A stretch of DNA of 39,099 nt, taken from contig CADCPT010000283.1 in assembly GCA_902803385.1 (NCBI GenBank), positions 1 through 39,099 of the forward strand. The letters are read 5' to 3'. Position numbers and translations under genes: made by a program. This DNA is from an uncultured Ruminococcus sp. Its GTDB lineage: Bacteria; Bacillota; Clostridia; Oscillospirales; Acutalibacteraceae. Below are positions 12,835 through 39,099 of this stretch, in pieces (the stretch's first letter is position 1; each line of letters opens with the position of its first letter). Below the pieces are notes generated by a model. It did no database searches. It was given only the letters and a program-made list of their open reading frames with translations, and was not told the origin of the DNA.

Positions 12835-12845
12835 GGGGGAGCAAA

Positions 12846-14255: not shown

Positions 14256-14266
14256 GGGGGATCGGT

Positions 14267-15286: not shown

Positions 15287-15288
15287 TA

Positions 15289-16503
15289 ATGACAATAACT
15301 GATAAAAATATTAAAGAGCTTTTTCCGATCCTTTCGGGTGACATGATCTACCTTGATTCAGCCGCGACCGCTCAGAAGCCGATGTGCGTTGTGGACGCCG
15401 TAAGGGATTTTTATCTGAATAATAACGCTAATCCGATGAGAGGAATGTACGACCTTAGTATCAGGGCTACCGACGATTACGAGGCGTCACGTCAGGTTGT
15501 TGCCGATTTTATAAATGCTGCAGACAGCAGTGAGATCGTTTTTACAAGAAATGCAACAGAAAGCCTGAATCTTGTTGCTGACTCCTTCGGTGCTGCGCTG
15601 ACCGAAGGAGACGAGATACTCGTAGCTACAAGTGAGCATCACAGTAACTTTCTTCCCTGGAAGAAAGCTGCAGAGCGCAGCGGGGCAATGATACGTTTTC
15701 TTGACTGTCTGCCTGACGGTACAATGACAGCAAGTATGCTCAGAGAAGCACTTACGCCTGCAACGAAGATATTCAGCGTTGCTCAGATATCCAACGTATT
15801 CGGAAGGGTCAATCCTATAGCGGAATATGCTGCTGTTTGTCATAAAAACGGCACTCTTATCTGTGTGGATGCATCTCAGAGCGTTCCTCATATAGCGGTA
15901 GATGTGCGGTCTCTTGATGCTGATTTCCTTGCTTTTTCAGGTCATAAGCTTTACGGTCCTATGGGCATAGGCGTTCTTTACGGCAAGAAAAAGCTTCTGA
16001 AAAAGCTTCCTCCGTTTCTTCGCGGCGGAGAAATGATAGATTATGTTTCCAAGGAGAAAACTGTATTTGCAGAGCTTCCTCACAAATTTGAAGCCGGAAC
16101 GGTAAGTGCCGCCGATGCAGCAGGACTTCGTGCAGCAATAGGATTTGTAAATGATGTTGGCTTTGAACAGATAGAAGAAAGAGAGCTTCATCTAACGAAG
16201 CTTGCTTTTGAAGGTATGAAGAAGATACCGCATGTGAACATATTGGGAGCAGATAATGCCGAAGATCACCACGGCATACTTACTTTTACTATAGATGATG
16301 TTCATCCCCACGATATTGCAGCTATTTTTGCAGAGGATAACGTATGTATAAGAGCCGGACATCACTGCGCTCAGCCACTTCATATACTTCTCGGAATTCC
16401 TTCCACAGTACGCGCAAGCCTTGCATTTTATAATACCGATGAAGATATTGAAAAATTCCTCGGTGTTCTTTCAACGATAAGGAGTCGGATGGGTTATGAA
16501 TAA
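15289..16503 (+). CDS. sufS: Cysteine desulfurase SufS (class V aminotransferase, group II).
   Basis: PLP lysine motif FSGHKLYGPMGIGVLYG and the active-site loop RAGHHCAQP are present. An alternative start at ATG 15283 would overlap the sufD stop. The ATG at 15289 has better spacing to GAGGAAG. Confidence 0.9.
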   Translation: MTITDKNIKELFPILSGDMIYLDSAATAQKPMCVVDAVRDFYLNNNANPMRGMYDLSIRATDDYEASRQVVADFINAADSSEIVFTRNATESLNLVADSFGAALTEGDEILVATSEHHSNFLPWKKAAERSGAMIRFLDCLPDGTMTASMLREALTPATKIFSVAQISNVFGRVNPIAEYAAVCHKNGTLICVDASQSVPHIAVDVRSLDADFLAFSGHKLYGPMGIGVLYGKKKLLKKLPPFLRGGEMIDYVSKEKTVFAELPHKFEAGTVSAADAAGLRAAIGFVNDVGFEQIEERELHLTKLAFEGMKKIPHVNILGADNAEDHHGILTFTIDDVHPHDIAAIFAEDNVCIRAGHHCAQPLHILLGIPSTVRASLAFYNTDEDIEKFLGVLSTIRSRMGYE

Positions 16504-23200: not shown

Positions 23201-26200
23201 GTTCACAGCTTTCTGTAAACAGTAATGAAAATGCATCAAACTCTGTTTTTGCAGATGTTCAGGATTACAGCTTTGTTCTGAGCCGTCATGCCCGTTTTGT
23301 TGATGATACTGATGCCGGAAAGAGTCTTTTCAAGGTCTGGACAAATTATAACAATACCGGAAAACCATCAATTACTGATATTAACTCAGTCGATGGATTT
23401 GCTATCACATATTCCGGCTCTTTTTATGCCTACGATTCCTCTGATGTTCCTTTGTCTGAACCTGTGGATGAGTCTCAGGTCTCATACTATATGACCGAGC
23501 TTCAATTCACAAAAACGGCTTATACATCAGGTGTTTCCGGCTATATCCCTGTAACCGTCAAGGTATTTAAGTCTGATAAAAAAGTTGTGATACATGGCCT
23601 TGCAGTATTTGCCCAGACAGGCGTCGGCTATGATTATATCGTTACTGAGGATAATCAGACAGCTCATTATAATTCGAATACTCTTGATGAAACAAACAAG
23701 CAGATAAATACTTCTACAAAATACGTGGATTTTGAGCTGAAAAACAACCTCAAGACCTTCGACCTTCGTCTTAACAAGCTGTTCGGAACGAGGTACAATG
23801 ACGGTTCTTCTGATGTTGTCAATGCGTTGGCTCCGGGAGAGTATGCAGCCTATTTCAATGAAACATTTATCGGCAGACTTAAGTTCAGGCTTGAAAGAAA
23901 GCTTGGTACTGCAGGTACATGGCAGGAATACAAGACTGTCAATACCAACAGCGGTGATATTACTCTTACAAAGAGCAATGGAATGTACAGCTGTATCTTC
24001 AGATATCTGCCGATATGTGATACAAGCGGTACAAGATATTACTATCGCATTGTTGAAACTTCACAGCCGGGTAATGACGATCATTATACCATAAGCTATC
24101 CTTCAAGAGCAGACGGAAGCTATACTACTGATATTTCAACAGAGGCTTCAACTGCTTCTGATACAGGCTTGTCGCTTGATCCCAATAATTCCGGAAACTA
24201 TCGTTCAACTCAGGATCTTTATGTCCGTAATATTTTTGAATCCAAGCGGGTGAGCATTGAAAAGTTCTGGGAAGACCATAATAATGAAGACGGCACCCGT
24301 CCGACCTCACTTGAGGTCTACCTTTATGAAAAGGTAGACAGCTCTGTGACAGGCAGTTATCCTTCTCCGAATCCGTATCTCATAACCGAAACGCTCAGTT
24401 CTTCTGAAAACTGGTCTAAGAATATCACCCTTCCGCAGTACTACTACAATGCGAGTACGCCGATAGGGGATATCAAGTACACCATCCGTGAGCAGACTTT
24501 GTCGCAGGCAAAGCAAATGCTCACCACTACCGTGCCTGATCCTCAGTATCCGGGTGATACGACAACAACAAAAACCATAACCGTGCCCGATCCTGAGAAA
24601 AAGACCGCCGCGGAATACGGCTATTCGCTGACCGGCTACGGCTATATCATAGGCGGTACAAAAAACCAGGAGGGAACAAGCAATACCTTTAATGCACCCG
24701 GAACAGCCTATCAGGGCAAGAATACTCAGGCTCTTGATGGTACAAACTCAGGTTCAGTAACCTATAATATCAATGGTGTTGACGGCTTCTACCTTGAAAA
24801 CTCCAAGCCGCGCATGGATACGAACCTCAGCTTTACAAAGGCATGGGATGATTCCTCTGACAAATGGGGCGAAAGACCTGATTATTATTACATTAAGGTA
24901 GTCCGCAGATCAGAAAATGAGAATGACGCTCCTGCCGATCCGGAAGCACCTTCGGCTGATCCGGAAGCAGATGCAACAACAACTCCTTATGATGTAGTAA
25001 AGTATACCTACAGCTATACATCAGGAAATGAGTATCTCATATCAGCGTCTGACGGCACAAACACTTATACCGCAGATGCTTCGACCGGAGTTATTGCTAT
25101 CCCTAAGACCGTCAATACCGTGAATATCACACATCTTGCATATGGTGTGAGTGAAGGTGCGACAGATCAGATCAACGGTACATGGTCGCAGTATTACTAT
25201 ACTGTTGTAGAGTGCGATGAGTACGGCAACGACATTACCGCAAAGCTTACCTACAGCACAGGTAACAGTACATCTGATACAAGAACACTGAATACTTCCA
25301 AAAAGCTTACATTCAATTATACTGTCGGCTCCACCTATACAAAGACTTATTTCCATCTGAGAGTAAAAAGAACCAGTGATAATGAAGTCGTCAAGACTGA
25401 TATCAACGGTGTTCCGCTGAAAATGGTCGTTACCTACAGTAAGGACGGAACGATCTACACTGATGAATACGCCGCCGGCGGAGCACAGCACGGTATTGTT
25501 GCCGATGGTGTTATTGTTGTTCCTGTTCCTGCGAATGATGTTACGGTCGTAAGTGCTGTAATAGACGGCTTGCCCTTCGGTTCAAAGAACGGAGGTACAG
25601 TTACGCAGTACACTTACACTGTAGATCAGTGCGATTCAAGCGGTACGGAACCCAGAAACGGTGTAACGATAAACAGTATAGTTTGTTCTGATTCCGGCGT
25701 ACAGAAAGCTGCCGTTGATATGACATTTACAAAGTCATGGGATGAGAATGCCGTAAGAAACACACTTCGTTCCGATAATATGTACCTCAGGCTTTATCAG
25801 AAGCAGGAGGGCGTCAGCGGTGCGGCTGTTCCTTATTATGACGCTTCTTCATTGACTCTCACTATAGGTGAAACAACTTATTCATCTGTCGGCGGTTTGT
25901 TTACCATTCCTTTGGCTGATGCATCAGAAAGCATTACCGGTTCCATATCCGGTCTGCCGTCCGGCGATTTCCTGTCAAACGATACTGATGGATATTCTGT
26001 CTGGAAGCCTTATATCTACTACCTGGAAGAATATAATAACGATTCCGGAACTCAGAAGATGGATGCTGCAAGCCCGTATATTCCGTCATATGACGGTAAT
26101 ACGACCCCGAACGGAAGGGTCGCTCCGTTTGAAATAACGCAGGCTGATCCTGAGGATGAAAGCTCTGCATACACAAAGGCTGAGCTTTCAAGGAGGATAA

Positions 26201-29200
26201 AGAATTCCCTTGAGCCTACAGAGCACATAATGCAGAAGACCTGGATAGATGACGCTGAGTCGCAGGATTCCAGAACTGCATATACCGTAAAGCTGCAAAG
26301 AAAGGCTGGTGTGGCTGGCTCATGGAATGACGTTTCGTTCTCAGCCGCAGGCGACGTCAGGTATTATGATGATAGTACAGAGGGTTCCCCCTTGCCGATT
26401 GCTGATGGAGGAACAACTGCATTTACCCTTTTAGCCGATAAGCTCAATGTTATATTCAAGAACCTTCCGAAATACGATGAAAACGGCGAGACCTACTATT
26501 ATCGAGTTGTTGAAAGCATGGTCGGTACAAATAATGTAGTCGGTTCAGACAACGATCAGACAAAGCGTTATATGTTCCAGATACCGAACGGCACATATGT
26601 TTCAAAATGGCACAGAGGTACTGAAAACTATTATGTTGACTATGTTGATACTCCGGCCGGTGAAGACACAATTTCAAAGACCGAGATCAGAAACGAAATT
26701 GTCAAGAACACCGTCAGCTTTGTGCATATTGAAGCGAAAAAGGTCTGGAATGACGAGAATAACCTTTACGGCACCAGACCTGAAAGCATAACCTACCAGC
26801 TAAAGCGTAGGATCAAAACTATTACAAAGACCGGTGAGGGAGACGAGGCCGTTCTTGAAGTTACAAAGTCAGAAGACACGACCTTCAACAGCAAAACAGA
26901 CGATACCCAAAAGACTGTTTCTGAGGATGATTCCTGGACTGCCCACTGGAGCCACTGCGCAGCCTTTGATGTACACGGCTCAGAGTATGAGTATTATGTT
27001 GAAGAACTCAGTGTTTCCGGATATGACCAGTCCGGGCCGGAAGTAACCACTACAACTGACGTAAACAGTGAGCTGACACAGACCAATACCTTTACAAATA
27101 CTCCCACCAATACAGAATCTGATCCTGTTTTAACAAACAACAGATACAGACTTGATGCAACAAAGGTCTGGAGCGACCAGAACAATAACTTTGCCCTTCG
27201 CCCGGCTAAAGTGACTTTCACCCTTTATTGCAAGTATGACATCTGGGAATACAGGGACGAAGAGGGAGAGGCCATAGCGAACCCGACTCCCGAAAACCGC
27301 GGCACTCTTACAAAAGCCGACGAAGGTTACGATCAACCTGTGTATTCCGCTGCCGTAGGCGATGATCCTGATGATCCCGATTATGTTCCGGAGGTTGTAA
27401 GTGCAGTTTACGGTAGGCTGTCTGCGGCAGATAGAGCAAAGCTTGTTCAGACTCTGACAGTTTCAGAAAAGGTCGGTTCTGATACAAACACTTGGCGCGT
27501 TACATTTACCGGACTTCCGACTTCTGTAAATACCTCGGCTACCGATATGCTTGCAGGTAAGAGTGTACCCGTTACATATTACGTTGTCGAGACTTTCAAG
27601 GATTCATCAGATAATGACATTACAGCTACCGTCAAGAAGACCTATCGCTGTGCTGATGCGGATGATTCCTGCGAGTCCTCCGAGGTGGCTCTGGGCGGAG
27701 CCGACAAAACGGGGGATAACGGTCTGAGTCTCACCAATACCCTTGATACCCGTGATATCACCGTTACTCTAAAGTGGGTCGATAACTCTTACGGCAATAA
27801 TAAGGCAGACCGCGATTCACTGCATTATAATGTTGCAGTTTCCCTCACTAACAGTATGCTTGCTTCCACTGCTTCAGGCAAAACTGACGAAGGGCTCTAT
27901 AAGGAAACAAAGGTAATAGATACCACACATTGTAAAACTCAGGACAGTGATCCGATTAAACAGGGCGTCATTTTCAAGGATCTTCCGATCTATGATGCAA
28001 GCGGCAATATTATTATCTACAGTGTTTCCGAGGAGCTTACAACAGCTACTGCAGTCGCTGCCGATCAGAACGGTACCTTCAATGGATCCGGTTCGTCTGC
28101 TGCAGCTGAATTCACTCAGAATACATCCGCGGATAAGAGACAGTACGGATATAACGGAAGCTGCACAATGAATACTGCTGCGGGGTATGGTTCTGACACA
28201 TATGTAACTCAGTACAATATCACAAACGAACTGCCTCTTACTGCATTTGATGTTCAGAAAAACTGGATAGACTTTGATAACAGGTATTCCCTCAGACCAA
28301 CAACAATAACAGACGGTAATACCACATCAAGCAGGACAGATTATTCTACTCTTTATCTCTCGCTGCAGAGAAAGAGCGGAGAAGCTTCATATGCAGCGCT
28401 TGAACCGAACACTGCCGCTAAGAAAGAGGACAGGTATACTGCGGCTTCGTCCGGCACTTCAACAGGCACCTGGACATACACCTACACAAAGCTTCTGAAA
28501 TATGATAAGAACAATATCATATATTCATTCAATATCGTTGAGACTCAGCATAGATCATATGAAGCACCCAGATACTGCACTTCGGGTAATTATGATACTG
28601 TGGGTGCTGCATCTACTCAGGAGCTTACAGGTGATTCTCTTACTGCGCTTGCCAACTCAGCAGCGAAGTGGAACGGCACAAACAAGCTTTCTGCTAAGAT
28701 GCAGGTCACAAATAAGCTTGACACCCGTGAGATCAAGGTCACAAAGACCTGGAATGATAACGGCTATGCAAATGATGATTCATCTGTACAAAACGATCTG
28801 CATTATAACATAGCAGTTACCCTCAGCAATTCCGCATTAGGCTGTAATGAAAATAACAGGCACGATAACAGCGGCAAATATAAAGAGACCAAGGTGCTTG
28901 CCGCCAACAGCACTGATGCACTTGTTTTCAGGGAGCTGCCGAGATACTTTAATGACGGCAGCGAGATAGTTTACAGCATTGCCGAGGCAAAGAATGAAAC
29001 TACTGCTGCGGCAACGGGAACTGATGTCACAGCAACGCTTGAGACCTCCGCTGCATCGGATGTTGCTGCAAATGTATTTACCTATGATACTGTAAATCGT
29101 AAATACGGTTATGTCGGAAGCTGTAAGGAACGAAGAGACAGCAGCGCTACTCCTGTAGTAATGCAGTATGACATTACAAACACCCTTCCGCTTACTGATG

Positions 29201-32200
29201 TTGAAGTGACTGTTTACTGGGTGGACGATGAGGATTATCATAAGTATGCAACAAATGACGACAACAGAAAAATAACCTACACTGTCACAAGGTCTGTTGA
29301 AAATACGAATGATAACGAAAAACCGTACAGTAAAGTGGATACTGAGGATTACACTAATGCGGAAGTAGTTTATAGCGATCTTACAAATCAGCTCGTATAC
29401 AACTATGGAAACGAAAAGTATACCTACAGAGTTGAACAAAATCATCTTACAGGTTATATTACCGACTATCCTCCGGCAGCAAATTCCGAGGGAATAAATA
29501 CCGATAAGCAGACTGCCCAAGCGGTAGAAAAGGTTTCAGGTGAATCAGGCAGCGGCAAGACCCAGATGAACATCCGAAACACTCAGGTGACCGCTGATGT
29601 TGATTTTACCAAGGTCGATAAGACCTATAAGGATGAATTCAGCACAGCAACAGGCTACAGCCAGAAGGTCATCCCGGGAACAAGCTTCGATCTTAAAAAG
29701 TGGGATAATGACGGAAATGATGGTAACGATGTATCGATCCCGGTCACCCGTACTTCAACGACTGATAACGGCAAAACGAGATACACCTACACCTTCAACA
29801 CCTCGGGAACGGACTATATCGTTGCCGATGACTTCGGCGAAGTCAATTTCAAGGGTCTGCCGTTGAACAAATACTATCTGAAGGAGCTTACTGTTCCCAA
29901 GGGATTTGTTCTCGATACGAACAAGCTTGTATTCGAGCTTGACGAAAAGTGTGTTCTTGACCCGACAAACTATCCTGGCGATACGAGCAATGCAATGAGT
30001 TATGATTCAAAGCTCACCTTGCCCGGCGATGAACATCTTATCGCTGATGCAGAACAGCCGAGCAGTCTGTCTCTGACAAAACAGGGTATGGACGAAAACG
30101 GCGATATGGTTCCGCTTGAAAAAGCGACTTATCAGCTGTTGAGGCTCATCCCGTTCGAGCTTAACACCAACACAACGGTCACAGCGGCCGCCGAGACTGC
30201 CGCTCAGAACAGTGGCGGAACAAAGACAGCCGAGCAGTGCTACCTTGAAAGCGCAGCTAATGCAGTCAGGAATACGCCCTCTGATGTCAGCAAATACTGG
30301 ACATCTAGCTATAAGGATATCAATAATTCAGCTCAGACGACCACTTACCAGACAACTGTAAATGGCACTATACAGGCAAATGACCTTACCTTCGGCACAT
30401 ATGTATTCTATGAGGTCCAGGCGCCTGTGGGTTACAATATTGATCGCACTCTGGAGCCTGTTACGATCAATGCACAAACTATCGCGGCAGACTTCCCGTC
30501 TGTATCACCGCCGTACAGCTTTACATCAGTATATAAGCTGACGGAGGATACAACAGACGCTGCCGATGCAAGAGACACCGTGCATATCGATCCTCAGAAG
30601 GATGCGCATGTCCAGGTACAGAAAACCGACGAATTCGGCAATGCATTGAATGAAGCTGAATTTGAGCTGTATTATGATCCGGAGATCGAACCTCTTGTGA
30701 CCCCGAAATCTGACAATGATTATATTTTCTTTACTGATGTAAAAGAGAACCGTTGGATAACAGGTACAATAGAAACGTCTTCACCTAATAAGGGTAGGTT
30801 CAACATAGATGATGAAAATGCATTTGTCTATGCCTGCTATACTCTGTCTGATAACAGTACATCTATTGTGAAGATGGATGAAAGGTATGTTGTTCATTTC
30901 AATTCTGGAGATCAGGATTATGATGTTATCCATAAGATCCAACCTCCGGATAATGCTGTCAGTGTTTTCTTTATGAATGCTGAAACACTTGAAAGCTGTA
31001 CCAATAGGACTGTTGAAATGCCGCTGAAAAAAGGCTATGGCTATAAGAGAAGTGATAATACAACAACTTCTATCGGGGGTAAGTCAACATATGGTCTTAC
31101 AGAGTGGAAACTTACAACAAATGATCTGCTTGATGATGGTGTTACGGTTTCTTCAACTGTAGAATTCAAGCCTACCAATAATAAAGTAGTTATCTGTCTC
31201 GACAGTGGTTATGACTGGGATGATCTGCATATTTGCTTCTTTGATTCATCTGATAATCCTGTTGGTCAGACATTCCCGGGTTATATGCTTGAAAACTATA
31301 GCGGCATTAGAATCCAGAGCGGAGTATTTTATGAATTGACCATTCCTGAAGGTGCTTCTAAATTCAGCCTTAATAACGGTGCAAAAGAAAACGGTGATAT
31401 GAAATACTACAGTACAAATAAGTATAGTATTCTAACCAGTGCTGACTATCAGAATGGCGGCAACTATTATCATTTCACAGGAGACTTTACACAGGTTGGA
31501 GAAATAAAGGTATTTACTCTGGAACAATATACGAGTGCAATGCCCAGAACAGTAGCTTCAGGATCAAACGGTGAGATCTCAGATAATGACTATGTTTATT
31601 TCACTCATCCGGGAAGTCCTTATCAGTCGAAACTGTACGCATACTTCTACAACGCTGATGATACAGAATATCAGGCATGGCCCGGACTTCCTTCTGAAGG
31701 GACATATGTAAATGAGTATAGTCAGAATGTTTATAAGTTCAGGATTCCTGATGGTTATAGCTATGTTATTTTCAATGATAATAGTGGTAATCAGATACCT
31801 GCGAGTAATTCGAGTGAAAAAGTAGCTGCTGTAAGAGGTCGGGGATATTATATTAATGGCAATACTCTTGGACATTGGGTTCAAGCTGGCTTAGCTGTCA
31901 CGGAAACCTATACTGCGCTCTCTTCTACACTCGGTCTTGAAAAAAACATGTACATTTGTGAAACTTCAGGAAACTGGGATAGAATACATATTCTCTTCTA
32001 CGATTCAGACGGAAATGTTATCCACCAGTCGTCACCGGGTTACATACCGCAGTACATTGGAGTAGCCTCTGTATCCAATTCAAGCGGCAAATGCTACAGC
32101 ATTGTTATTCCGGATGATGCCGCAAGCTTCAAGGTCGTGAACAGTGATAATAACGGCATAGTAGCCTCCTCCTCCGCAGCTGTTTACCCCGGCGGCATTT

Positions 32201-34041
32201 ACACGATCGGAGCAAAGTCTTCCAATGCCAATATTACTCAGCATTCTCCGATCAAGGTCGCCACTCTTAAAACCGGCGACGACGGCTACACCAAGGTCAA
32301 CTCTGTTGAGCTTACAACGGCAGGGCGTGATTATGCATCAGTCGATACGGATAATAAGACCATAGTGCTTACGAAGTGGGGTAATTATTACTTCAAGGAA
32401 ACAAAGGCTCCAACGGGATATGAAATCACAAATGAGTATTATCCCTTCACTGTTGACAGTGCTGTTGCAAACCTTCCGCTTTATGTAGTAACAGCAAGCA
32501 ACAGCCGTAAGTTTGGTCTTGTGCAGCTTACTAAGATCTCTTCCGAGATTCTTAATGATACCGACGCCGGAACCGTACTCACTAATAACTCAAGCTTTGA
32601 GATGTATAAGTATGTTGACGGAACGTATGACGGAACAGCCGCACACGATCAGAAGATCGCGGTCAGATCCCTTACATCCGGCTCCTACGCATATGATGAC
32701 GGCGGAAGCAGTTATACACTTACGACCTCATCCGGTACGTTTACGGTATCCGGTCTGCCTTGGGGCAAGTACTATTTCAAGGAAACAAGCGCCCCAACAG
32801 GCTATAAGGTGAACGAAGACAATATCTACTTCACAGTCGGAAGAAACAGTCCGGAAATTGTTTCCGTATACTGTCAGGACGAGATCGTTCCTGCAAGCCT
32901 GAACATCAAAAAGGAGATAGATGATTGGGTAGATGAATGGGGAGATCCGACATTTATCTTCACGGTAAAGAATACCACTGCAGGCGCACGGAATTACGGG
33001 CGCGAGCAGAGGTTCAGTATTACCTTTGCATCCGGTGACAGAACTGAACGCAATTCAAGTAACAGGTTTGAAAAGACCATAGAAGATATCGAGCTCGAAC
33101 CCGGAAGCTATGAGGTGACTGAGCTTCAGGTCGCAAGATTCAGTTGTTCGGATGTTACTGTCACAGGCGGCAGTTCAACCTCTACTGTTTTGGCTGATCG
33201 TAAAGCTTCATTCACAGTTGCTGCAAACGATAACGTTACTGCAGCATATACAAATACGTTGAATTATTACGATAAGTTCAGCCATGCTGACAGTGTGACC
33301 AATGTATTTAATGGTATAAAGGGAATAGAAGTACAGTGTATAGCACCCGTTGATGTTCCCGACAGGATACTTGCTGCAAATGGTGTCCATTATGAAGAGG
33401 ATCTTACAAAGAGCAGCGTTCTCAGCGCTTACTTTGTAAAGGCTGACGGAACAAAGCAGCCTCTGACTAACGACCAACTCAAAAAGCTTACGATAACTTA
33501 TCCGGCTCAGAGCAATGATGATCCGTTCAGGATCACTGACAGCGGTAGCAATAAGGATACCTTCAAGCTTGTTACCGAACCTGTTATTTCCTCAGGCTGC
33601 GTATATGGGCTGAGAGCTTCCTATCAGTACGATCAGACTCATAGCTTCACCGATGATTTTAAGCTTACCTTCAAGGATAACAACAATATTGTTCAGAGGA
33701 CAGTTACCTTCAAGGCTGATGACAACGGTTACACTTATTTCGATCTCGGAAACGGTGAGACGACTGACGAACTGAAATTCACCTATTACATCGTCAATAA
33801 CGGCACCGCTAATGAGATCCATGCAGTCACCTACAAGGGTGTGATCCTCAGCGGAAAGCATGCGGATGTTATAACCTATGCTAATACAATAACCATCAAC
33901 TCAGGTTATTCCGGCTCATATCAGTTTGGCTCACAGAAATGGAATACTACAGGCAGTGTTCCGTATGCAAACCTTGATACAGGTATTCTTACTGCAAGCC
34001 GGGATATTGTATACACTATTAATGTTGTTACGATAACATAA
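17272..34041 (+). CDS. Giant secreted cell-surface adhesin-like protein (5589 aa). Order of parts: Sec signal peptide; ~175-aa non-repeat head; more than 20 CnaB-like (isopeptide-type) domains; SpaA/prealbumin-like domains; ~500-aa CBM25/26-like insert; ~385-aa unique C-terminal region. It has no LPXTG.
   Basis: This is one uninterrupted ORF. The signal peptide is MKKSIFKRFISSILALLMLISASPFDMTVFA/SDG. The CnaB-like domain-start motif xxKxWxDxxNxxxxRP recurs (IEKFWEDHNNEDGTRP, AKKVWNDENNLYGTRP, ATKVWSDQNNNFALRP, VQKNWIDFDNRYSLRP, FTKAWDDSSDKWGERP). The mid-domain motif LPKYDxxGxxxxYxVxE recurs (LPKYDNNGNEYIYFARE, LPKYDNKGKQIQYTVQE, LPKYDENGETYYYRVVE). Domain-end [IV][TR]N motifs are present. 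SpaA-like ends include GLPLNKYYLKELTVPKGFVLD, GTYVFYEVQAPVGYNID, WGNYYFKETKAPTGYEIT and WGKYYFKETSAPTGYKVN. The C-terminus is ...RDIVYTINVVTIT*. Confidence 0.9.
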   Translation: MKKSIFKRFISSILALLMLISASPFDMTVFASDGYVGIKNVVYTDRSSVKTRYLLKFYKEVYTRIPVENFDVLNPQYTFERSEVPVAFGPALNLGNNTYLERSDSNNQCELILKNGDDINLSGNQTLLSFFKNNAICRIDIVYDNNAPSNKADNSECLLYTNSTVDPEEANPDVYSASVTFTPQRNASGITYDFSSCNAVTFTSTTIDPVVVEQLWRDSGNNRPTEYLPSAFSLSRTTDGVSYESVTADSSSVEPITSNDINYIYKFPSYDDGNNKYTYKAVQSPSVLVRHEENKINDLKYENIGLTDVEFNIDWDDAARSTLRKTITPADLISYFDFYSIDSGVETQLTLDASKIEISGNKVTIKDVVEIGEDNAAVVYYIKPKNAQIAASTFLNNYSGIDDDVYGITADNPGVNSAVTDKVYLGNSQNCGSLRMLLKGDTEFGGTINWSDNADCDTERKDAVTNGAAGTFTLYRYINGHTDLVSQVGSWPIDAPDGENEDSYSFQFIDITNGNSTVLPKYDNNGNEYIYFARESVNKITAGGVDYQYNVSYSDFPTGTNLYYPFSSGGSYLGHVVFPNNATVTNTVSSSINIRVEAQWIAAALQGGEASVTYQVQKYTGSGWTNVGSSQTITDFSPERMHLSVDMGSFDKFDTNGDLNKYRVVQTSLSRKDSGQTGNYTYPVEMNYDANGDLVVTGGNIVNISSTGAESPASGESLYIMIGGHRFKISVTKSGSNYVYTYTLTDSVPLRINKDWKNIMIKRGADSSNTALLTGIWNSNVTLQLNIYDFTNNRYIAYTPNSDDRPAITGLDANGCLVLTSSDMISDTNERFSKILQNAPRYDKDGHENRYEIVEINATGVSGFYKLCTITNNDGYKDLKVDNIFSGDGETIEFEKIWINDDKQQYMTGIVNIEGSARAMPYYGPGEDNTVQFDFTNSKINAATAGMDDHDTATSLYNMYRNAYYSKWGCYPDEDTYVYNAPSGTDPGSGSETNGSIKWNDPGVTVGTKHFNDTLTDNDISHLQLSDEDAASLKNYAGYLGTGLSLTKDRSYRASLNVKDGYSNVNNDLSDKLNDFREYLPNHTASGKFFVPVSTIEETAKSAMLDGSTMLGKVVSTEDGNTHGTEITVTSGNNVGFQDCKNAIFVDDIDRFEWLSGVYAAQFGNYTHYYAVQEEPTVDNSCKLRKITFRNTMTGIINIKIDFEWALGDWLTAAAGADQITYVKVKLLANGQTVTFPSGSGTTDTITIRVSADLKTYYLRNLPKYDNKGKQIQYTVQEWEIQGKSVSNGQCVLNADNTCTVKVSTPTTDDYVNNKTSNSGDVIPITISNKFEGSTSIEIFKHWIDDNNAANTRSDLYISLWRHSTNTRTPVADSQQGEEYRWHKDYNNEYVNDWRYEFTGLDKYDADGFLYEYYVYENPTYLKPKEYETSYSNTGSHASGTYISYNGIDPGTAVVNAQNLPAKRCYNGGTITNQLKANKTITGDKLWQKTDDLVDKDYPVADVFLYKKSKVINSSDKFPTTPVMSSDGGYKLAYSVTEDSVDYNIELVNIVQIVNGQRNFNFDTAYILPKKQVGPGDSAYTTIDETKLVYVSNGDAGKNVDFVNCTGITSSPLNKYDDNGARVQYDLTERTINGYAFKISNQTIVNEYNGGDPVTVQFSKQWQNMTNNYDAYPNINVVLKQCYIGLTSKTDPTPAIKVSSTVSKEFGPSDFQTAGGDLNVPVTDPKLVKFAPNGMRFFCYFEEEMTDAQRIRTTTFRPTYELVTKAQLLSKLADGYKKVYPYASDFTTGRVTRPEKVYIIVKSGGTAVTVDKDGNNLSADLGGNVTSGADAEGMIELDVSGDGTIICDINDLPSGTYTVEAVKPDGSADTSTLCSFIQTDETDSSKLHVILARGDEFVSVKGNNNTTTECCIVRKASAETNKGLGFNCTIGDITPTGETTAAGSITNRYDPDDEENFEANITVTKKWQNYYTKTASGSQLSVNSNENASNSVFADVQDYSFVLSRHARFVDDTDAGKSLFKVWTNYNNTGKPSITDINSVDGFAITYSGSFYAYDSSDVPLSEPVDESQVSYYMTELQFTKTAYTSGVSGYIPVTVKVFKSDKKVVIHGLAVFAQTGVGYDYIVTEDNQTAHYNSNTLDETNKQINTSTKYVDFELKNNLKTFDLRLNKLFGTRYNDGSSDVVNALAPGEYAAYFNETFIGRLKFRLERKLGTAGTWQEYKTVNTNSGDITLTKSNGMYSCIFRYLPICDTSGTRYYYRIVETSQPGNDDHYTISYPSRADGSYTTDISTEASTASDTGLSLDPNNSGNYRSTQDLYVRNIFESKRVSIEKFWEDHNNEDGTRPTSLEVYLYEKVDSSVTGSYPSPNPYLITETLSSSENWSKNITLPQYYYNASTPIGDIKYTIREQTLSQAKQMLTTTVPDPQYPGDTTTTKTITVPDPEKKTAAEYGYSLTGYGYIIGGTKNQEGTSNTFNAPGTAYQGKNTQALDGTNSGSVTYNINGVDGFYLENSKPRMDTNLSFTKAWDDSSDKWGERPDYYYIKVVRRSENENDAPADPEAPSADPEADATTTPYDVVKYTYSYTSGNEYLISASDGTNTYTADASTGVIAIPKTVNTVNITHLAYGVSEGATDQINGTWSQYYYTVVECDEYGNDITAKLTYSTGNSTSDTRTLNTSKKLTFNYTVGSTYTKTYFHLRVKRTSDNEVVKTDINGVPLKMVVTYSKDGTIYTDEYAAGGAQHGIVADGVIVVPVPANDVTVVSAVIDGLPFGSKNGGTVTQYTYTVDQCDSSGTEPRNGVTINSIVCSDSGVQKAAVDMTFTKSWDENAVRNTLRSDNMYLRLYQKQEGVSGAAVPYYDASSLTLTIGETTYSSVGGLFTIPLADASESITGSISGLPSGDFLSNDTDGYSVWKPYIYYLEEYNNDSGTQKMDAASPYIPSYDGNTTPNGRVAPFEITQADPEDESSAYTKAELSRRIKNSLEPTEHIMQKTWIDDAESQDSRTAYTVKLQRKAGVAGSWNDVSFSAAGDVRYYDDSTEGSPLPIADGGTTAFTLLADKLNVIFKNLPKYDENGETYYYRVVESMVGTNNVVGSDNDQTKRYMFQIPNGTYVSKWHRGTENYYVDYVDTPAGEDTISKTEIRNEIVKNTVSFVHIEAKKVWNDENNLYGTRPESITYQLKRRIKTITKTGEGDEAVLEVTKSEDTTFNSKTDDTQKTVSEDDSWTAHWSHCAAFDVHGSEYEYYVEELSVSGYDQSGPEVTTTTDVNSELTQTNTFTNTPTNTESDPVLTNNRYRLDATKVWSDQNNNFALRPAKVTFTLYCKYDIWEYRDEEGEAIANPTPENRGTLTKADEGYDQPVYSAAVGDDPDDPDYVPEVVSAVYGRLSAADRAKLVQTLTVSEKVGSDTNTWRVTFTGLPTSVNTSATDMLAGKSVPVTYYVVETFKDSSDNDITATVKKTYRCADADDSCESSEVALGGADKTGDNGLSLTNTLDTRDITVTLKWVDNSYGNNKADRDSLHYNVAVSLTNSMLASTASGKTDEGLYKETKVIDTTHCKTQDSDPIKQGVIFKDLPIYDASGNIIIYSVSEELTTATAVAADQNGTFNGSGSSAAAEFTQNTSADKRQYGYNGSCTMNTAAGYGSDTYVTQYNITNELPLTAFDVQKNWIDFDNRYSLRPTTITDGNTTSSRTDYSTLYLSLQRKSGEASYAALEPNTAAKKEDRYTAASSGTSTGTWTYTYTKLLKYDKNNIIYSFNIVETQHRSYEAPRYCTSGNYDTVGAASTQELTGDSLTALANSAAKWNGTNKLSAKMQVTNKLDTREIKVTKTWNDNGYANDDSSVQNDLHYNIAVTLSNSALGCNENNRHDNSGKYKETKVLAANSTDALVFRELPRYFNDGSEIVYSIAEAKNETTAAATGTDVTATLETSAASDVAANVFTYDTVNRKYGYVGSCKERRDSSATPVVMQYDITNTLPLTDVEVTVYWVDDEDYHKYATNDDNRKITYTVTRSVENTNDNEKPYSKVDTEDYTNAEVVYSDLTNQLVYNYGNEKYTYRVEQNHLTGYITDYPPAANSEGINTDKQTAQAVEKVSGESGSGKTQMNIRNTQVTADVDFTKVDKTYKDEFSTATGYSQKVIPGTSFDLKKWDNDGNDGNDVSIPVTRTSTTDNGKTRYTYTFNTSGTDYIVADDFGEVNFKGLPLNKYYLKELTVPKGFVLDTNKLVFELDEKCVLDPTNYPGDTSNAMSYDSKLTLPGDEHLIADAEQPSSLSLTKQGMDENGDMVPLEKATYQLLRLIPFELNTNTTVTAAAETAAQNSGGTKTAEQCYLESAANAVRNTPSDVSKYWTSSYKDINNSAQTTTYQTTVNGTIQANDLTFGTYVFYEVQAPVGYNIDRTLEPVTINAQTIAADFPSVSPPYSFTSVYKLTEDTTDAADARDTVHIDPQKDAHVQVQKTDEFGNALNEAEFELYYDPEIEPLVTPKSDNDYIFFTDVKENRWITGTIETSSPNKGRFNIDDENAFVYACYTLSDNSTSIVKMDERYVVHFNSGDQDYDVIHKIQPPDNAVSVFFMNAETLESCTNRTVEMPLKKGYGYKRSDNTTTSIGGKSTYGLTEWKLTTNDLLDDGVTVSSTVEFKPTNNKVVICLDSGYDWDDLHICFFDSSDNPVGQTFPGYMLENYSGIRIQSGVFYELTIPEGASKFSLNNGAKENGDMKYYSTNKYSILTSADYQNGGNYYHFTGDFTQVGEIKVFTLEQYTSAMPRTVASGSNGEISDNDYVYFTHPGSPYQSKLYAYFYNADDTEYQAWPGLPSEGTYVNEYSQNVYKFRIPDGYSYVIFNDNSGNQIPASNSSEKVAAVRGRGYYINGNTLGHWVQAGLAVTETYTALSSTLGLEKNMYICETSGNWDRIHILFYDSDGNVIHQSSPGYIPQYIGVASVSNSSGKCYSIVIPDDAASFKVVNSDNNGIVASSSAAVYPGGIYTIGAKSSNANITQHSPIKVATLKTGDDGYTKVNSVELTTAGRDYASVDTDNKTIVLTKWGNYYFKETKAPTGYEITNEYYPFTVDSAVANLPLYVVTASNSRKFGLVQLTKISSEILNDTDAGTVLTNNSSFEMYKYVDGTYDGTAAHDQKIAVRSLTSGSYAYDDGGSSYTLTTSSGTFTVSGLPWGKYYFKETSAPTGYKVNEDNIYFTVGRNSPEIVSVYCQDEIVPASLNIKKEIDDWVDEWGDPTFIFTVKNTTAGARNYGREQRFSITFASGDRTERNSSNRFEKTIEDIELEPGSYEVTELQVARFSCSDVTVTGGSSTSTVLADRKASFTVAANDNVTAAYTNTLNYYDKFSHADSVTNVFNGIKGIEVQCIAPVDVPDRILAANGVHYEEDLTKSSVLSAYFVKADGTKQPLTNDQLKKLTITYPAQSNDDPFRITDSGSNKDTFKLVTEPVISSGCVYGLRASYQYDQTHSFTDDFKLTFKDNNNIVQRTVTFKADDNGYTYFDLGNGETTDELKFTYYIVNNGTANEIHAVTYKGVILSGKHADVITYANTITINSGYSGSYQFGSQKWNTTGSVPYANLDTGILTASRDIVYTINVVTIT
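27727..29590 (+). repeat. Diverged tandem duplication of a two-domain unit inside the giant gene (about 27727-28700 and 28704-29590).
   Basis: The translations are parallel. Unit 1 reads LTNTLDTRDITVTLKWVDNSYGNNKADRDSLHYNVAVSLTNS...KRQYGYNGSC...VTQYNITNELPLTAFDVQKNW. Unit 2 reads VTNKLDTREIKVTKTWNDNGYANDDSSVQNDLHYNIAVTLSNS...NRKYGYVGSC...VMQYDITNTLPLTDVEVTVYW. Confidence 0.8.
30712..32215 (+). other. Four starch-binding-module-like (CBM25/26-like) repeats inserted between SpaA-like domains of the giant protein. Approximate module starts are 30712, 31178, 31582 and 31945.
   Basis: Module 3 is DNDYVYFTHPGSPYQSKLYAYFYNADDTEYQAWPGLPSEGTYVNEYSQNVYKFRIPDGYSYVIFNDNSGNQIP. It has the pattern vYF..p..w..vyaYfw....... 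aWPG..m...g..Y.f.ip.....viFnd..g.Q typical of amylase-associated starch-binding modules. Modules 2 and 4 keep the frame but carry TFPGYML and SSPGYIP instead of WPG. Module 1 is weaker. Confidence 0.6.
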
Positions 34042-34262
34042 CCGAAAGGAGAGAGGGAAATGCCTCATGGTATCAGAATAAAAATTATAATACAAAGGGC
34101 TTTCTCTCTCCCGACGGCTTTGGCCTTTGCTCCGGAACAGTGTGACGGGATCTATGAAAACTATTTCAGACTATTGTTTATTAGTATTCTAAATAATTCT
34201 AAAGCATACGCTATTCAGAGAAACGTTCCTGCGTATGCTGCTGCAAACAGGAGATGATGAGT

Positions 34263-35066
34263 ATGAAAAATAAAAAACGGATCCTACCGATAATTGCTGT
34301 TTCGGCGATGCTCGTCATTCTCCTTGCATCCAGCTCGGTCGTTTCTTATCTTATGGATAACGATAACAAGGATAATGTAATAAAGATAGGCAAGGTCGAT
34401 CTTGAGCTTTCCGAAACGCTGTTCCAGAATAGTCAGGCGGTTGTACCGGGAAGCAAGATGGATAAAAATCCTGTTGTCACTAACAGCGGCACAGTTTCGG
34501 AGTATGTTTTCCTAAAGGTCACAGTGCCAAAGGCAAATGTCACCCTCCTTAATGAAAATGGCGAAACGAACGAAGGAAAACCGAAATATACCGGGACGAG
34601 AATAGTTGAATTGTTTCGTATAGGTTCTGATGGACCTGGCACTTCTACATCAACTAAAATTTCCGATATCCAGACAGGAGCACCTCCGGTCTCTGTAGAT
34701 AATGATATATATTATAATAAAGGAGACGGTACCAATAGCATTGAGGGTTGGTATTATCTAAGCACAAAAACCGAGGTCAATACCGATTCCGATGTTTATT
34801 ACTTTGGCTATAACAAAGCCCTTGCGCCTGATGACACCACTACCGACGGAACGAACGAAGCCGAAAGTACTATCACTTTGTTTGACAATATCCAGCTCAA
34901 GAGCTTTATCGAAGGGCAGGAATCGGGTAATGTCACAGTTGATGTTGTAGCTTATGGAATACAGAAGGACAATCTCACAGGTATTGATAATTCCGGTACA
35001 TATCTCAGCGACGCAGATATAGTCAAGGTGTTTGAAACTCTTATGAATAATTTGGGAGGAAGTTGA
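34263..35066 (+). CDS. TasA/BsaA/camelysin-like protein with a SipW-dependent-type signal peptide.
   Basis: The N-terminus is MKNKKRILPIIAVSAMLVILLASSSVVSYLMDNDNKDNVIKIGKVDLELSE...VVPGSKMDKNPVVTNSGTVSEYVFLKVTVP. It follows the pattern hydrophobic core, [ST]-[YF]-[LF]-x-D, N-x-[FI]-x-x-G-x-[VL]-x-[IL], then PG...KdP.V.N.G seen in TasA-family proteins. The C-terminal part has the motifs EGWYYL, YYFGYN and TLFDNIQL. I chose the ATG at 34263, 9 nt after AGGAG; the ORF-track start is 34254. Confidence 0.7.
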   Translation: MKNKKRILPIIAVSAMLVILLASSSVVSYLMDNDNKDNVIKIGKVDLELSETLFQNSQAVVPGSKMDKNPVVTNSGTVSEYVFLKVTVPKANVTLLNENGETNEGKPKYTGTRIVELFRIGSDGPGTSTSTKISDIQTGAPPVSVDNDIYYNKGDGTNSIEGWYYLSTKTEVNTDSDVYYFGYNKALAPDDTTTDGTNEAESTITLFDNIQLKSFIEGQESGNVTVDVVAYGIQKDNLTGIDNSGTYLSDADIVKVFETLMNNLGGS

Positions 35067-35071
35067 TCATT

Positions 35072-35761
35072 ATGAAAAAAATAACACGAAAATCATTAGT
35101 GATCGCTTTTTCTGCTGCAGCTCTTTCGCTTGCACTGGTATTTACAGTCTGGGCGTATTTTGCGGCGCATGATGATAAGAATAATGTCTTTACTATCGGT
35201 AACATCGGAACGGTTACAAATGCTTCTGAAAGCCGTCAGATTTCTGAAACGTTTTCATCTCCGGAGATACAGGCTGTAAATGAAACCGTTACCAAAACCG
35301 TTAGCGTGAGGAACAATTCGTCTAACAAATGCTTTGCCCGTATGTATTTTGACTTTTCAGACAGTAAGATAAGAGATAATGCAAAAATATATGTCGGAGA
35401 AACAGAATACAGCTGGTCGGATTTTATAAGTACAGCAAAAGGTGCTGGTATCAATGGCTGGAAATATATTGATCCGAGTGAAAATAATACAGCTCTTGCA
35501 GGGTATTTCTATTATATGACGGCACTTGATGCAAAGAGCGGAAACAGTATTCCCACAACTCAGCCATTGTTTACTTCCGTAAAAACAGATTTCAGAAAAG
35601 ATACTGTTCCGGATGGTCTGTCTCAGGAGGATTTCATTAAGAACTATAATATAATAGTTTACAGTGAGACTGTTCAGACTGTAGAAACGAGCACAGGACT
35701 CGATTATTCATCAACAAACAACTGGAAGGAAGCTTGGCAAAGCTTCCTAAAGGTTACATGA
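35072..35761 (+). CDS. Second TasA/BsaA/camelysin-like protein with a SipW-dependent-type signal peptide.
   Basis: The N-terminus MKKITRKSLVIAFSAAALSLALVFTVWAYFAAHDDKNNVFTIGNIG has a textbook 'AYF..' junction followed by N-x-F-x-x-G. Later motifs are NGWKYI, GYFYYMTAL and PLFTSV. The ATG at 35072 lies 11 nt after GGAGGA and 5 nt after the upstream stop. Confidence 0.75.
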   Translation: MKKITRKSLVIAFSAAALSLALVFTVWAYFAAHDDKNNVFTIGNIGTVTNASESRQISETFSSPEIQAVNETVTKTVSVRNNSSNKCFARMYFDFSDSKIRDNAKIYVGETEYSWSDFISTAKGAGINGWKYIDPSENNTALAGYFYYMTALDAKSGNSIPTTQPLFTSVKTDFRKDTVPDGLSQEDFIKNYNIIVYSETVQTVETSTGLDYSSTNNWKEAWQSFLKVT

Positions 35762-36748: not shown

Positions 36749-38899
36749 TCAATTCTTAACGATTTCGACCCAGTAGGAGCTGGTCATGCTGCCCTTGTAT
36801 CTGTTGATCTTGTAAGCGTTTGTGTCGTAGCTGAAAACATTCTTAGTATTGTCATAAGCGGTCTTGTTTTCGATTCTTGCTACATCGAGGTATCTGTCTG
36901 ATGTCGGGCTGGTTATACCGATTCTGGAGTTCGGGTCGATCTTCTCGCTGATGGTGAATATGCACTTAGAGGTGGTGTTCTCTCCGAGGAACGCGTTGTT
37001 TGTTTTGCCGTTTGAGAGCTTATTATCGATGATGGTGATCATTCCTTTAATTTCGGGGTCGCAGGAGGATGAGCTTCCTTTCTGAGCGTAGATTCCGCCG
37101 CCTTCTTCATTGGCTTCGTTGCCTGTGATGCTGGTATCCCAGAGGTTGAGATAGTTCATTGAGTCACAGTAGATCGCACCGCCCTTTTTGCCGGATTTGT
37201 TGCCGGTAAAGGTCGAACCTCTGAGCCACAGTGAGCTGCATAAATTGTAGCCTCTGTAGTCAAAGCAGATGGCACCGCCGCTGCCGGTTGAAGAATTGTT
37301 CCTGAAGGTGCAGTCTCTGATTGATGTGTCATAGTTCGCGTAAACTGCGCCGCCTTCATTTGCGGAATTATTGATGAAGTCGCAGTTTCTGACATTGAGG
37401 GAGACATCCAGGAGATTAAAGTCCTTTAAGAAGCGGATAGCGCCGCCGCTCTTGCCGTAGTTTCCGTCGAAAGTGCATTTTTTGATATCCGCACTTGCGT
37501 TGTTGATATAGACCGCGGTCTTGTTGTTGTTCTTGAAGGTGCAGTTTTCTGCGTTCAGCTTGCCGCCATTATTCTCTACGCCGGAATCCGATGCATCTTT
37601 GACGGTAATGCCGTTGAGGTTGAGAGTGCCGCTGTTAAGCCTTATTCCGCTGACGGAGCCCATGTTGTTGCTTGAATCAATGATGTTGAGCGTGCCGTCA
37701 TCAACGGTGGCGTCAAACTTTCTGCTGCCGGAATGGATAATGGAATGACCGTTGAGGTCGAGGGTGACATTCTGACTGTTCACATAAAGTCCGCCGTCTT
37801 TGAAGTTTTCATTTGCCTTGTAGTAAAAAACGTCCTTGGAAAAATCTGAATTGTTCCAATCCTTGACAAGCTGAATGGTACCGTTGTTCTTTGCTGCATA
37901 GACCCAAGCGTCGCCGAGTGAGAACATTTCTGTGGTTTTGCCGCCAACAGTGACATTCGCAACAGTGAGGCTGTTCAGTTCTTCCTTTGACTCGTTGTAC
38001 TTTTTGCATACCTCTGCGGCCTTGCGGCAATATAACTCAATATCGTTCTTTGCGGAATTCTGAATGCTTTCCATAGTTGCCTTGTCGATCTTTCCGTCAT
38101 CATAGTTCAACTTAGCTAAATTGTACTTTGAGTTGAGACCGGTCGTCAGATTTGCAAAGAGGAGTGCGTACTGCTCCATTACCATAGTTTCAAAGCTTGT
38201 GCAGTCACTTTTGACTTTAGCCGCATCATTGTTGTTGCTCTCATCGGCTTTTGCAAGCTCGAGGTACTGGCTGAAGGTGGGGAGGCCTTTAACTCCGGCC
38301 TGACCGTTTATGATAAGATTGCTTAGATCCATGAAAGCAATTGTAACGTTTTCCTTGTCAATGGTAACGTCGATAATATTTTGAAAATCCTGCGCACAAT
38401 AGTTATCTTCATTATACAGCGAGATCTGAGCCATAGCATTTTCGTTATAGCCTTCGATGCTGGTTATGATATTCGCAAGATTCTGAAGCTTTGTGATGTC
38501 GGTAAGTTCCTTTATCTGCTGGGTCTGACTGTTGTAGTGATCGTCAATTTTAGTGGAAAGCTCGTTTACCAGTTTGATGATGTCAGCTGCGGTGGGCTCG
38601 GGTGCTATCGAATCTTTGTATACACACTGGAAGGCTCCAAGAGCACCTGACATTATGATACCTGCAACGGGATTGGCAGCTGTTACAACTCCCGCGAGTG
38701 CGTTGGCACCGCTGAAGAAGGCATCGGAGGCAGGACTCTTACGGACAACGAGCGCCTGTGCACTCTGTGTGGTAAGATACGGAACGTTTACTGCGCTTGC
38801 AGTTGTCGCATACATCGCGCCTGTAGAAAGCATCATTACTGCTGCCATTGCGCTTGCAATAACTCTCTTGAAGTTGGTTGATTTTTTTGTTCTTTTCAT
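36749..38899 (-). CDS. Secreted two-part protein with an N-terminal alpha-helical region and a C-terminal right-handed beta-helix made of polymorphic-membrane-protein (Pmp)-type repeats.
   Basis: The signal peptide is MKRTKKSTNFKRVIASAMAAVMMLSTGAMYATTASA/VN. FxxN...GGA[IV] units recur five or more times: CTFDGNYGKSGGAIRF, CDFINNSANEGGAVYA, CTFRNNSSTGSGGAICF, STFTGNKSGKKGGAIYC, SITGNEANEEGGGIYA. An alternative in-frame start at 38968 also has AAGGAG-9 nt-ATG. Confidence 0.75.
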   Translation of the reverse strand: MKRTKKSTNFKRVIASAMAAVMMLSTGAMYATTASAVNVPYLTTQSAQALVVRKSPASDAFFSGANALAGVVTAANPVAGIIMSGALGAFQCVYKDSIAPEPTAADIIKLVNELSTKIDDHYNSQTQQIKELTDITKLQNLANIITSIEGYNENAMAQISLYNEDNYCAQDFQNIIDVTIDKENVTIAFMDLSNLIINGQAGVKGLPTFSQYLELAKADESNNNDAAKVKSDCTSFETMVMEQYALLFANLTTGLNSKYNLAKLNYDDGKIDKATMESIQNSAKNDIELYCRKAAEVCKKYNESKEELNSLTVANVTVGGKTTEMFSLGDAWVYAAKNNGTIQLVKDWNNSDFSKDVFYYKANENFKDGGLYVNSQNVTLDLNGHSIIHSGSRKFDATVDDGTLNIIDSSNNMGSVSGIRLNSGTLNLNGITVKDASDSGVENNGGKLNAENCTFKNNNKTAVYINNASADIKKCTFDGNYGKSGGAIRFLKDFNLLDVSLNVRNCDFINNSANEGGAVYANYDTSIRDCTFRNNSSTGSGGAICFDYRGYNLCSSLWLRGSTFTGNKSGKKGGAIYCDSMNYLNLWDTSITGNEANEEGGGIYAQKGSSSSCDPEIKGMITIIDNKLSNGKTNNAFLGENTTSKCIFTISEKIDPNSRIGITSPTSDRYLDVARIENKTAYDNTKNVFSYDTNAYKINRYKGSMTSSYWVEIVKN

Positions 38900-39099
38900 T
38901 TCGATACACTCCTTGTTTTTATTCTGGTTTACTGTGTTGTCCTTTTTAAGAATTACGGTTGTTTTCATTTTGATTCGCTCCTTTTATTTTTTTGAGGTGT
39001 TCCCCTCTGTTGTGAAATTGTCAATATTACTTGACACAATTTGAACGAACGATTTCAGGCAGCCAAGGACACCTTGCTATAGTAAAGGCTTCTCTTAAC

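Follow-up and report, generated by a model that had tools for sequence, protein, structure and literature searches.

A CBM26-family cassette nested in one SpaA domain of a giant fibrillar protein from an uncultured Ruminococcus: a candidate device for attachment to alpha-glucans

We analysed a 39,099-nt stretch of DNA from an uncultured Ruminococcus sp. (contig CADCPT010000283.1 of assembly GCA_902803385.1), the whole of which is hereafter called the window. It contains one long open reading frame (ORF; 17272–34041, + strand; 5,589 aa), which on the basis of the ORF list and the translation encodes a giant secreted fibrillar surface protein. The Cna_B/SpaA stalk of this protein is interrupted at aa 4481–4993 by four homologous beta-sandwich modules (M1–M4; an insert of 513 aa, the cassette being about 520 aa) related to carbohydrate-binding module family 26 (CBM26). 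Judging from the sequence, we favour with moderate confidence the view that this is a nested CBM26-family cassette carried on a giant fibre, that M3 provides an alpha-glucan-binding site, and that the arrangement serves attachment to alpha-glucan particles.

Four homologous modules interrupt the stalk

The first-pass annotation of this DNA had described, at 30712–32215, a break of approximately 500 aa in the CnaB/SpaA pattern. These positions correspond to aa 4481–4981, in frame with the 5,589-aa ORF, and all of the strings quoted at that stage were confirmed in the translation, both within the insert (DNDYVYF...KLYAYFYNADDTEYQAWPGLPSEG...YKFRIPDGYSYVIFNDNSGNQIP, GQTFPGYML and QSSPGYIP) and in its flanks (HVQVQKTDEFGN and KVATLKTGDDGY). 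The break itself was borne out, as Pfam finds the Cna_B/SpaA pattern in the rest of the protein. The insert comprises aa 4481–4993, with M4 ending at about aa 4986–4993, slightly beyond the end first given. All four modules lie on the + strand. M1 (30712–31176, aa 4481–4635) is a CBM26-like beta-sandwich in degenerate form whose C-terminus has a strand extension, M2 (31177–31581, aa 4636–4770) is a Trp-less CBM26 homologue, M3 (31582–31935, aa 4771–4888) is a canonical CBM26, and M4 (31936–32250, aa 4889–4993) is a second Trp-less homologue, always placed at the end of the cassette, directly ahead of the SpaA C-terminal half.

M3 matched the Pfam CBM26 profile (PF16738, gathering cut-off 28.1 bits) with 39.9 bits and an E value of 4.8e-10 over profile positions 1–69 of 70, and the same match scored 44.7 and 33 bits when larger pieces of the protein were submitted. 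By phmmer against the PDB, the closest solved relatives of M3 in sequence were the CBM26s of R. bromii Amy16 (9qf9, E 3.4e-12) and Amy10 (9qf8, E 3.7e-5); the whole 513-aa insert gave no PDB match with phmmer, whereas M3 singly and the profile described below did. M3 is thus a bona fide CBM26 member. The label CBM25/26-like given earlier could be narrowed accordingly: the CBM26 part holds for M3, whereas a CBM25 identity was rejected, as neither the insert nor any single module matched Pfam CBM_25 at E ≤ 10.

When M1 and M2 were compared singly with Pfam CBM26, no match was obtained, and M4 gave a sub-threshold match (14.8 bits, E 0.033); even a sub-threshold match was seen in only two of seven M2/M4-type sequences. 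The first reading that the four modules are related was confirmed by BLASTP, in which M2 and M4 shared 34% identity over 86 aa (E 5e-14) and the M2/M3 and M3/M4 pairs gave E values of about 5e-4 to 7e-4, and by family-iterated profiles seeded with M3, which linked all four (M1 28.6–42.7 bits, M2 47–54 bits and M4 46–52 bits). Neither Pfam nor these profiles found other CBM26-like modules elsewhere in the giant protein. A profile built on the M2/M4 type aligned with the canonical CBM26 profile (hhalign 97.7%, E 1.9e-12). Run against the PDB, it matched the CBM26s of Amy16 (E 9.3e-6), and in the exhaustive protein search the tail of its match list consisted of Pfam-verified CBM26 domains of amylase/dockerin proteins, at the coordinates called by Pfam. 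For M1, the counterpart in three relatives (P0028, P0042 and P0046) is a canonical Y-x-Y...WPG CBM26. Since M1, M2 and M4 failed both the hidden Markov model cut-off and the residue criteria set out below, we treat them as CBM26 homologues and do not file them as members of the family.

A complete ligand platform is present in M3

R. bromii Sas6 carries a CBM26 (RbCBM26) in which W63 and Y55 provide the stacking surface for the sugar, and Y53, K101 and Q103 form hydrogen bonds with it; the tryptophan equivalent to W63 is indispensable in a Lactobacillus CBM26, LaCBM26 (10.1101/2022.11.20.514607). We mapped the four modules on to RbCBM26 through an alignment with the Amy16 CBM26s, so that the correspondence is one of aligned sequences and not of superposed structures. 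In M3, Y53, Y55, W63 and Q103 are matched by Y4791, Y4793, W4803 (nt 31678–31680) and Q4841 respectively. In the Amy16 modules the corresponding string reads YFW...WPG...Q, in which WPG is the counterpart of W4803-P-G. The aromatic signature reported for this module at first pass, with Y4791, Y4793 and W4803 as its platform, is therefore intact. The positions of Y53, Y55 and W63 are occupied by C4655, F4657 and F4668 in M2 and by L4908, Y4910 and S4921 in M4, and the glutamine is absent from both, in agreement with the earlier observation that these two modules keep the framework and have replaced the tryptophan of WPG. M1 had been called more degenerate, and it indeed has Cys and Thr in place of Y53 and Y55, lacks WPG and the glutamine, and has no Pfam match. 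The complete platform is accordingly found in one of the four modules, with M1, M2 and M4 failing the platform test, and only M3 looks fit for canonical alpha-glucan binding. To speak of four starch-binding units, as had been done, was an overstatement, as the known alpha-glucan-binding residues occur in one module of the four.

The Trp-less modules have a signature of their own, represented by H4653 and PGY4671 in M2 and by H4906 and PGY4924 in M4. Among 406 modules of this class, H19, Y36 and F62 (M3 numbering) were found in 47%, 50% and 79% respectively; in the Trp class, for comparison, H19 was found in 6% and F62 in 9%, and Y36 was outside the five commonest residues. The Trp class of the adhesin family keeps the motif Y-x-[YW]...WPG, with Y21 in 82%, W/Y23 in 83%, P34 in 92% and G35 in 94%. 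Because the Trp-less modules of the M2/M4 type have their own conserved His, Tyr after Pro-Gly, and Phe, they form a separate subfamily under selection and are not the result of mere decay.

The cassette is nested in a single SpaA domain

The insert had been thought to be flanked by a SpaA-like domain on either side. This part of the earlier description did not hold, as the two flanks are halves of one domain. The N-terminal half, comprising the first two predicted strands (HVQVQKTDEFGNALNEAEFELYY; 30607–30675, + strand, aa 4446–4468), matched positions 2–25 of the Pfam SpaA profile (PF17802) with 14.9 bits, and the C-terminal half (PIKVATLKTGDDGY...WGNYYFKETKAPTGYEI...LYVVTASNSRK; 32248–32511, + strand, aa 4993–5080) matched positions 33–79 with 33.3 bits. 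When the insert was deleted in silico and the halves were spliced, a single SpaA match over positions 2–79 was obtained at 51.2 bits (cut-off 23.1). Since the flanks are complementary parts of one profile and give one match once spliced, the cassette interrupts a loop of one SpaA-fold stalk domain and does not lie between two such domains. In relatives of the protein, the motif K.DE.GNPL.GAEFELYY precedes every cassette. Within 28 cassette-bearing domains, the Lys (K4451) and the Glu of YYFKET of the SpaA isopeptide triad were conserved; the last-strand Asn was not consistently conserved, and the window protein has Thr at the aligned position. As the chain exits one SpaA domain and later returns to it, we expect the cassette to branch off laterally and not to continue the line of the stalk, with the two SpaA halves presumably in contact at its base.

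This topology bears directly on an alternative arrangement, in which four starch-binding modules would stand in line between two separate SpaA domains and act as a multivalent tether along the stalk axis. Four homologous CBM26-type modules are indeed present, and tandem CBM26 arrays are common in amylases. The complementary halves of one SpaA domain already contradict such a topology, however, and every module of the amylase-type tandem arrays is of the canonical kind (Y-W-W); in the window, M3 is the only canonical module and both M2 and M4 fall below the Pfam CBM26 cut-off. We consider the in-line arrangement highly improbable.

The structure model

A structure model of the cassette was built with AlphaFold2 (AF2) from a 20-row alignment of matches from the representative-protein search; an alignment of five sequences had given a predicted local distance difference test (pLDDT) value of 43.2. 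The 20-row model was all-beta, with a mean pLDDT of 77.3 and a predicted template modelling score (pTM) of 0.67. Its two strands from the SpaA N-terminal half had pLDDT values of 88–90, which would be unexpected for an orphan hairpin. The values for the SpaA C-terminal half were mostly 74–84, with one block at 67, and those for M1 were mostly 64–93. In a Foldseek search, the model matched the tandem CBM26 of E. rectale Amy13K (6b15_A) with a probability of 1.00 and an E value of 1.4e-6 over 231 aligned columns, in an output that does not indicate which of the modules align. Numerous pilins of Gram-positive bacteria were returned as well, along with SpaC (6m3y) and, at a probability of 0.99, the tandem CBM41 of SpuA (2j44). 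As a whole, the modelled cassette therefore has a beta-sandwich fold that matches solved CBM26 structures, and the profile scan and fold comparison proposed at first pass yielded both a Pfam CBM26 match and similarity to a CBM26 fold.

An alternative reading takes the modules as structural beta-sandwich spacers that descend from CBM26 and no longer bind carbohydrate, contributing instead bulk, length or protein–protein contacts. In its favour, the pTM of 0.67 points to several modules packed into one body, the platform has been lost from three of the four modules, and the use of immunoglobulin (Ig)-like and CBM-like folds as spacers is frequent. M3, however, keeps all of its ligand residues, the conservation of the Trp-class motif points to selection for binding beyond that for the fold, and a lateral nested insertion adds no length to the stalk. 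On balance, a role purely as spacers appears improbable.

Relatives and variation of the cassette

Word-indexed searches returned five proteins, namely four fragments of related adhesins and one alpha-amylase with two CBM26s. An exhaustive profile search of 1.84 billion representative proteins gave 128 at E ≤ 1e-3, a number that includes canonical CBM26 proteins in the tail of the list; its top matches were proteins of 2,000–7,500 aa. Among 185,579 species genomes scanned, at least 22 loci were located in at least 14 uncultured metagenome-assembled genomes (MAGs), these numbers being a lower bound because the scan was based on two peptide patterns. Every locus lay in a giant ORF, and some MAGs had several paralogues. 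Most of the 14 MAGs are named as rumen genomes (RUG series, 'ruminal_MAG'), and the names of UBA2857, UBA1244 and one Clostridia bin carry no source; the taxonomic labels are Ruminococcus sp., Acutalibacteraceae, Ruminococcaceae, Clostridia or Clostridiales. A protein from a Logan metagenome contig (P0012) was 98.6% identical to the window protein and had the same neighbouring genes. In the SRR22585827 assembly (L023, 946–17727), this 98.6%-identical gene was called as two ORFs of 665 and 4,908 aa, where the window has one of 5,589 aa, and a frameshift, an assembly difference or genuine variation could account for the split call.

The order of parts was the same in every complete relative: a SpaA N-terminal half, 2–11 CBM26-like modules and a SpaA C-terminal half. 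The distance between the halves increased stepwise (about 310–345, 557–694, 879–944 and 1637–1966 aa), and the four-module cassette of the window, at 557 aa from half to half, stands towards the short end of this range. In L002, L004, L006, L010, L019, P0009, P0017 and P0025, a single SpaA domain hosts an insertion of up to about 1,950 aa with 8 to 11 CBM26-like modules, and a nested insertion of about 1,950 aa is unusually large. An isolated extra canonical CBM26 was seen near the N-terminus (aa about 150–260) of L009, L013, P0006, P0009 and P0109; unlike these, the window protein has no such N-terminal module. From these comparisons, the nested design is conserved yet rare. To judge by its relatives, the bacterium that encodes the window protein probably lives in the rumen and belongs to the Ruminococcus/Acutalibacteraceae group.

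In 30 distinct complete cassettes, canonical modules made up 27% of the total (49 of 183), and the remaining 134 (73%) were non-canonical. The last module was canonical in none of the 30 cassettes, and the penultimate one was canonical in 23. A canonical module was kept in 24 cassettes and was missing altogether from six, as in P0041, in which the Trp is replaced by Ser.

Proposed function of the cassette

We propose that the four CBM26-family modules would loop out from one SpaA stalk domain and project sideways from the fibre, with M3 as the likely site for an alpha-1,4-glucan, which by homology may be starch, malto-oligosaccharides or glycogen. In the expected mode of binding, Y4793 and W4803 would stack on the sugar through CH/pi contacts, and Y4791 and Q4841 would form hydrogen bonds with it. 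M1, M2 and M4 would act as scaffold or presentation modules that keep M3 at a distance from the stalk, and may in addition contribute a glycan surface of their own, weaker or altered; this is the weakest step of the proposal. The net outcome would be that the cell, or a shed fibre, becomes attached to starch or other alpha-glucan particles.

Several observations weigh against this proposal. Isolated RbCBM26 bound only short oligosaccharides, and its binding to granular starch was undetected (10.1101/2022.11.20.514607), so that one canonical CBM26 may be a weak anchor. The platform is restricted to one of the four modules, and that module, M3, is the one modelled with the lowest confidence of the four (10-residue block means of 47–82). 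No amylase or other starch-utilisation gene was found in the 39,099-nt window. Because six of the 30 cassettes lack any canonical module, the function of the relatives may not depend on the canonical site. Finally, the protein that would tether starch has no recognisable anchor from which its geometry relative to the cell could be read.

Some of these points would fit a cassette whose true ligand is not dietary starch. Glycogen, the alpha-glucan capsule or exopolysaccharide of neighbouring cells (leading to cell-to-cell aggregation), or a non-alpha-glucan polymer bound through the Trp-less His/Tyr/Phe surface could each be considered. The predominance of non-canonical nested modules, which nevertheless have a conserved signature of their own, the six cassettes with no canonical module and the lack of starch-utilisation genes in the window are all consistent with such a ligand. 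On the other hand, CBM26 is the sole family that the modules resemble and is starch-specific in the cited literature (10.1101/2022.11.20.514607), a canonical module is retained in 24 of the 30 cassettes, at the penultimate position in 23, and the closest solved relatives of M3 are amylase CBM26s of R. bromii, a starch specialist. We therefore regard a different ligand as unlikely, and attachment to starch or similar alpha-glucan particles through M3 as the better reading.

A more far-reaching proposal concerns the Trp-less modules themselves. Those of the M2 and M4 types may form a new, functional CBM26-derived subfamily, which either differs in glycan specificity or joins the canonical module in an extended surface that would accommodate granular starch with its ordered or double-helical chains; the nested cassettes of 2–11 such modules would then be a hitherto undescribed, enzyme-independent starch-granule adhesion device of rumen Ruminococcus-like bacteria. 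Such an extended surface would be analogous to the addition of CBM74 to CBM26 in Sas6. We put this forward tentatively, as a conjecture that has some chance of being right but is more probably wrong.

Among gut and rumen bacteria, first access to resistant starch depends on attachment to the granules, and the attachment devices known in Firmicutes are CBMs on amylases and amylosome proteins such as Sas6 and Sas20. If our proposal is true, a giant fibre that bears a CBM26 cassette and has no enzymatic part would add a separate, enzyme-independent route of adhesion, and would do so in a lineage of relevance for ruminants fed on grain. In addition, the Trp-less subfamily offers a defined set of sequences for testing how a starch-binding fold is repurposed.

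The giant host protein and its anchoring

The translation of the 5,589-aa protein begins with a Sec-type signal peptide, and its stalk is rich in Cna_B and SpaA domains, with Pfam Cna_B scores of 70, 140 and 23.9 bits in three pieces and a SpaA score of 129 bits over four stretches. Pfam found nothing above threshold in the N-terminal 700 aa and the C-terminal 400 aa. A search of the last 120 aa for an LPXTG-like motif was negative, and no other recognisable anchor was seen; a motif-like string (VPTSG) at the C-terminus of one of 21 relatives was read as chance. A sortase-anchored LPXTG adhesin or pilin was rejected as an identity for the protein, since LPXTG is lacking and the match to the NCBIfam SpaH/EbpB pilin model (NF033902) was 28.6 bits against a cut-off of 95. 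Many relatives (L001–L018, P0006–P0112) share a C-terminal tail of roughly ...F.[SK]W...Y[TQE]AVL; the C-terminus of the window protein is encoded at 33800–34041. The cassette is located at 80–89% of the length of the giant protein. The protein thus has a signal peptide but no recognisable anchor that would define its polarity on the cell.

Downstream of the giant gene are two overlapping ORFs (34254–35066 and 35063–35761, both + strand), with matches to the TasA/camelysin family (Peptidase_M73) of 25.1 bits and, weakly, 15 bits. This gene order recurs in the independent Logan contig L023. The TasA/camelysin-like pair could be part of a fibre assembly or anchoring system.

Comparison with known systems

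The nearest points of comparison for the modules are the CBM26s of the amylases and amylosome of gut Firmicutes (R. bromii Amy16, Amy10 and Sas6, and E. rectale Amy13K, 6b15). Relative to these, M3 is a full-length member with the same ligand residues, M1, M2 and M4 are homologous by profile, and the modelled fold of the cassette matches the Amy13K tandem. Unlike them, however, the window modules are not carried on a glycoside hydrolase, a dockerin protein or a Sas-type protein and are nested in the SpaA domain of a giant fibre; moreover, the platform is missing from three of the four, two of which (M2 and M4) are members of the rare Trp-less subfamily.

An adhesive domain nested in a loop of a stalk domain is found in the pilus tip adhesins RrgA of S. 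pneumoniae and SpaC of L. rhamnosus. As in RrgA and SpaC, the putative binding unit of the window protein is inserted in a loop of a CnaB/SpaA-type domain, with the stalk domain closing round its base. The insert differs, being a tandem CBM26 cassette instead of a vWFA domain, and so does the host, which is a single-chain fibre of several thousand residues without LPXTG and not a sortase-polymerised pilin. In giant fibrillar adhesins, the adhesive domain and a cell-wall anchor usually occupy opposite ends. The window protein resembles those built from Ig-like repeats, such as that of Mobiluncus mulieris, in being very long and secreted and in having dozens of Cna_B/SpaA-type repeats; it departs from the usual layout in that its only recognisable binding unit is nested in the stalk and no anchor is detectable. 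The M. mulieris adhesin has 7,651 aa (PMC10619420). The first-pass annotation had remarked that glycan-binding units placed internally and not at the tip are unusual for an adhesin. The window protein offers no anchor by which to tell tip from base, and nesting is a familiar arrangement in pilus tip adhesins.

In the full-text library searched, no paper linked CBM26 with adhesins, pilins or fibrillar adhesins beyond one incidental co-mention, and the R. bromii amylosome paper mentions no comparable protein. The components are of kinds already known, and what is new is the arrangement of known domains together with the divergent CBM26 subfamily.

Other genes in the window

Near the giant gene, 36749–38968 (− strand) encodes a protein of 739 aa that has Chlamydia-PMP repeats as well as a right-handed beta-helix and is probably another surface or adhesin-like protein. 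A 1,035-aa protein (4534–7641, + strand) carries sensor repeats of the Reg_prop and Y_Y_Y types next to an HD_5/HD domain in one chain and is possibly an HD-GYP-like signalling phosphodiesterase. Directly upstream of the giant gene lies a SUF iron–sulfur cluster operon (SufC, SufB, SufD and SufS; 12022–16503 and 10332–11765, both + strand), and in L023 a NifU_N gene follows SufS. The presence of SpoVAD in the window indicates a spore-forming Firmicute.

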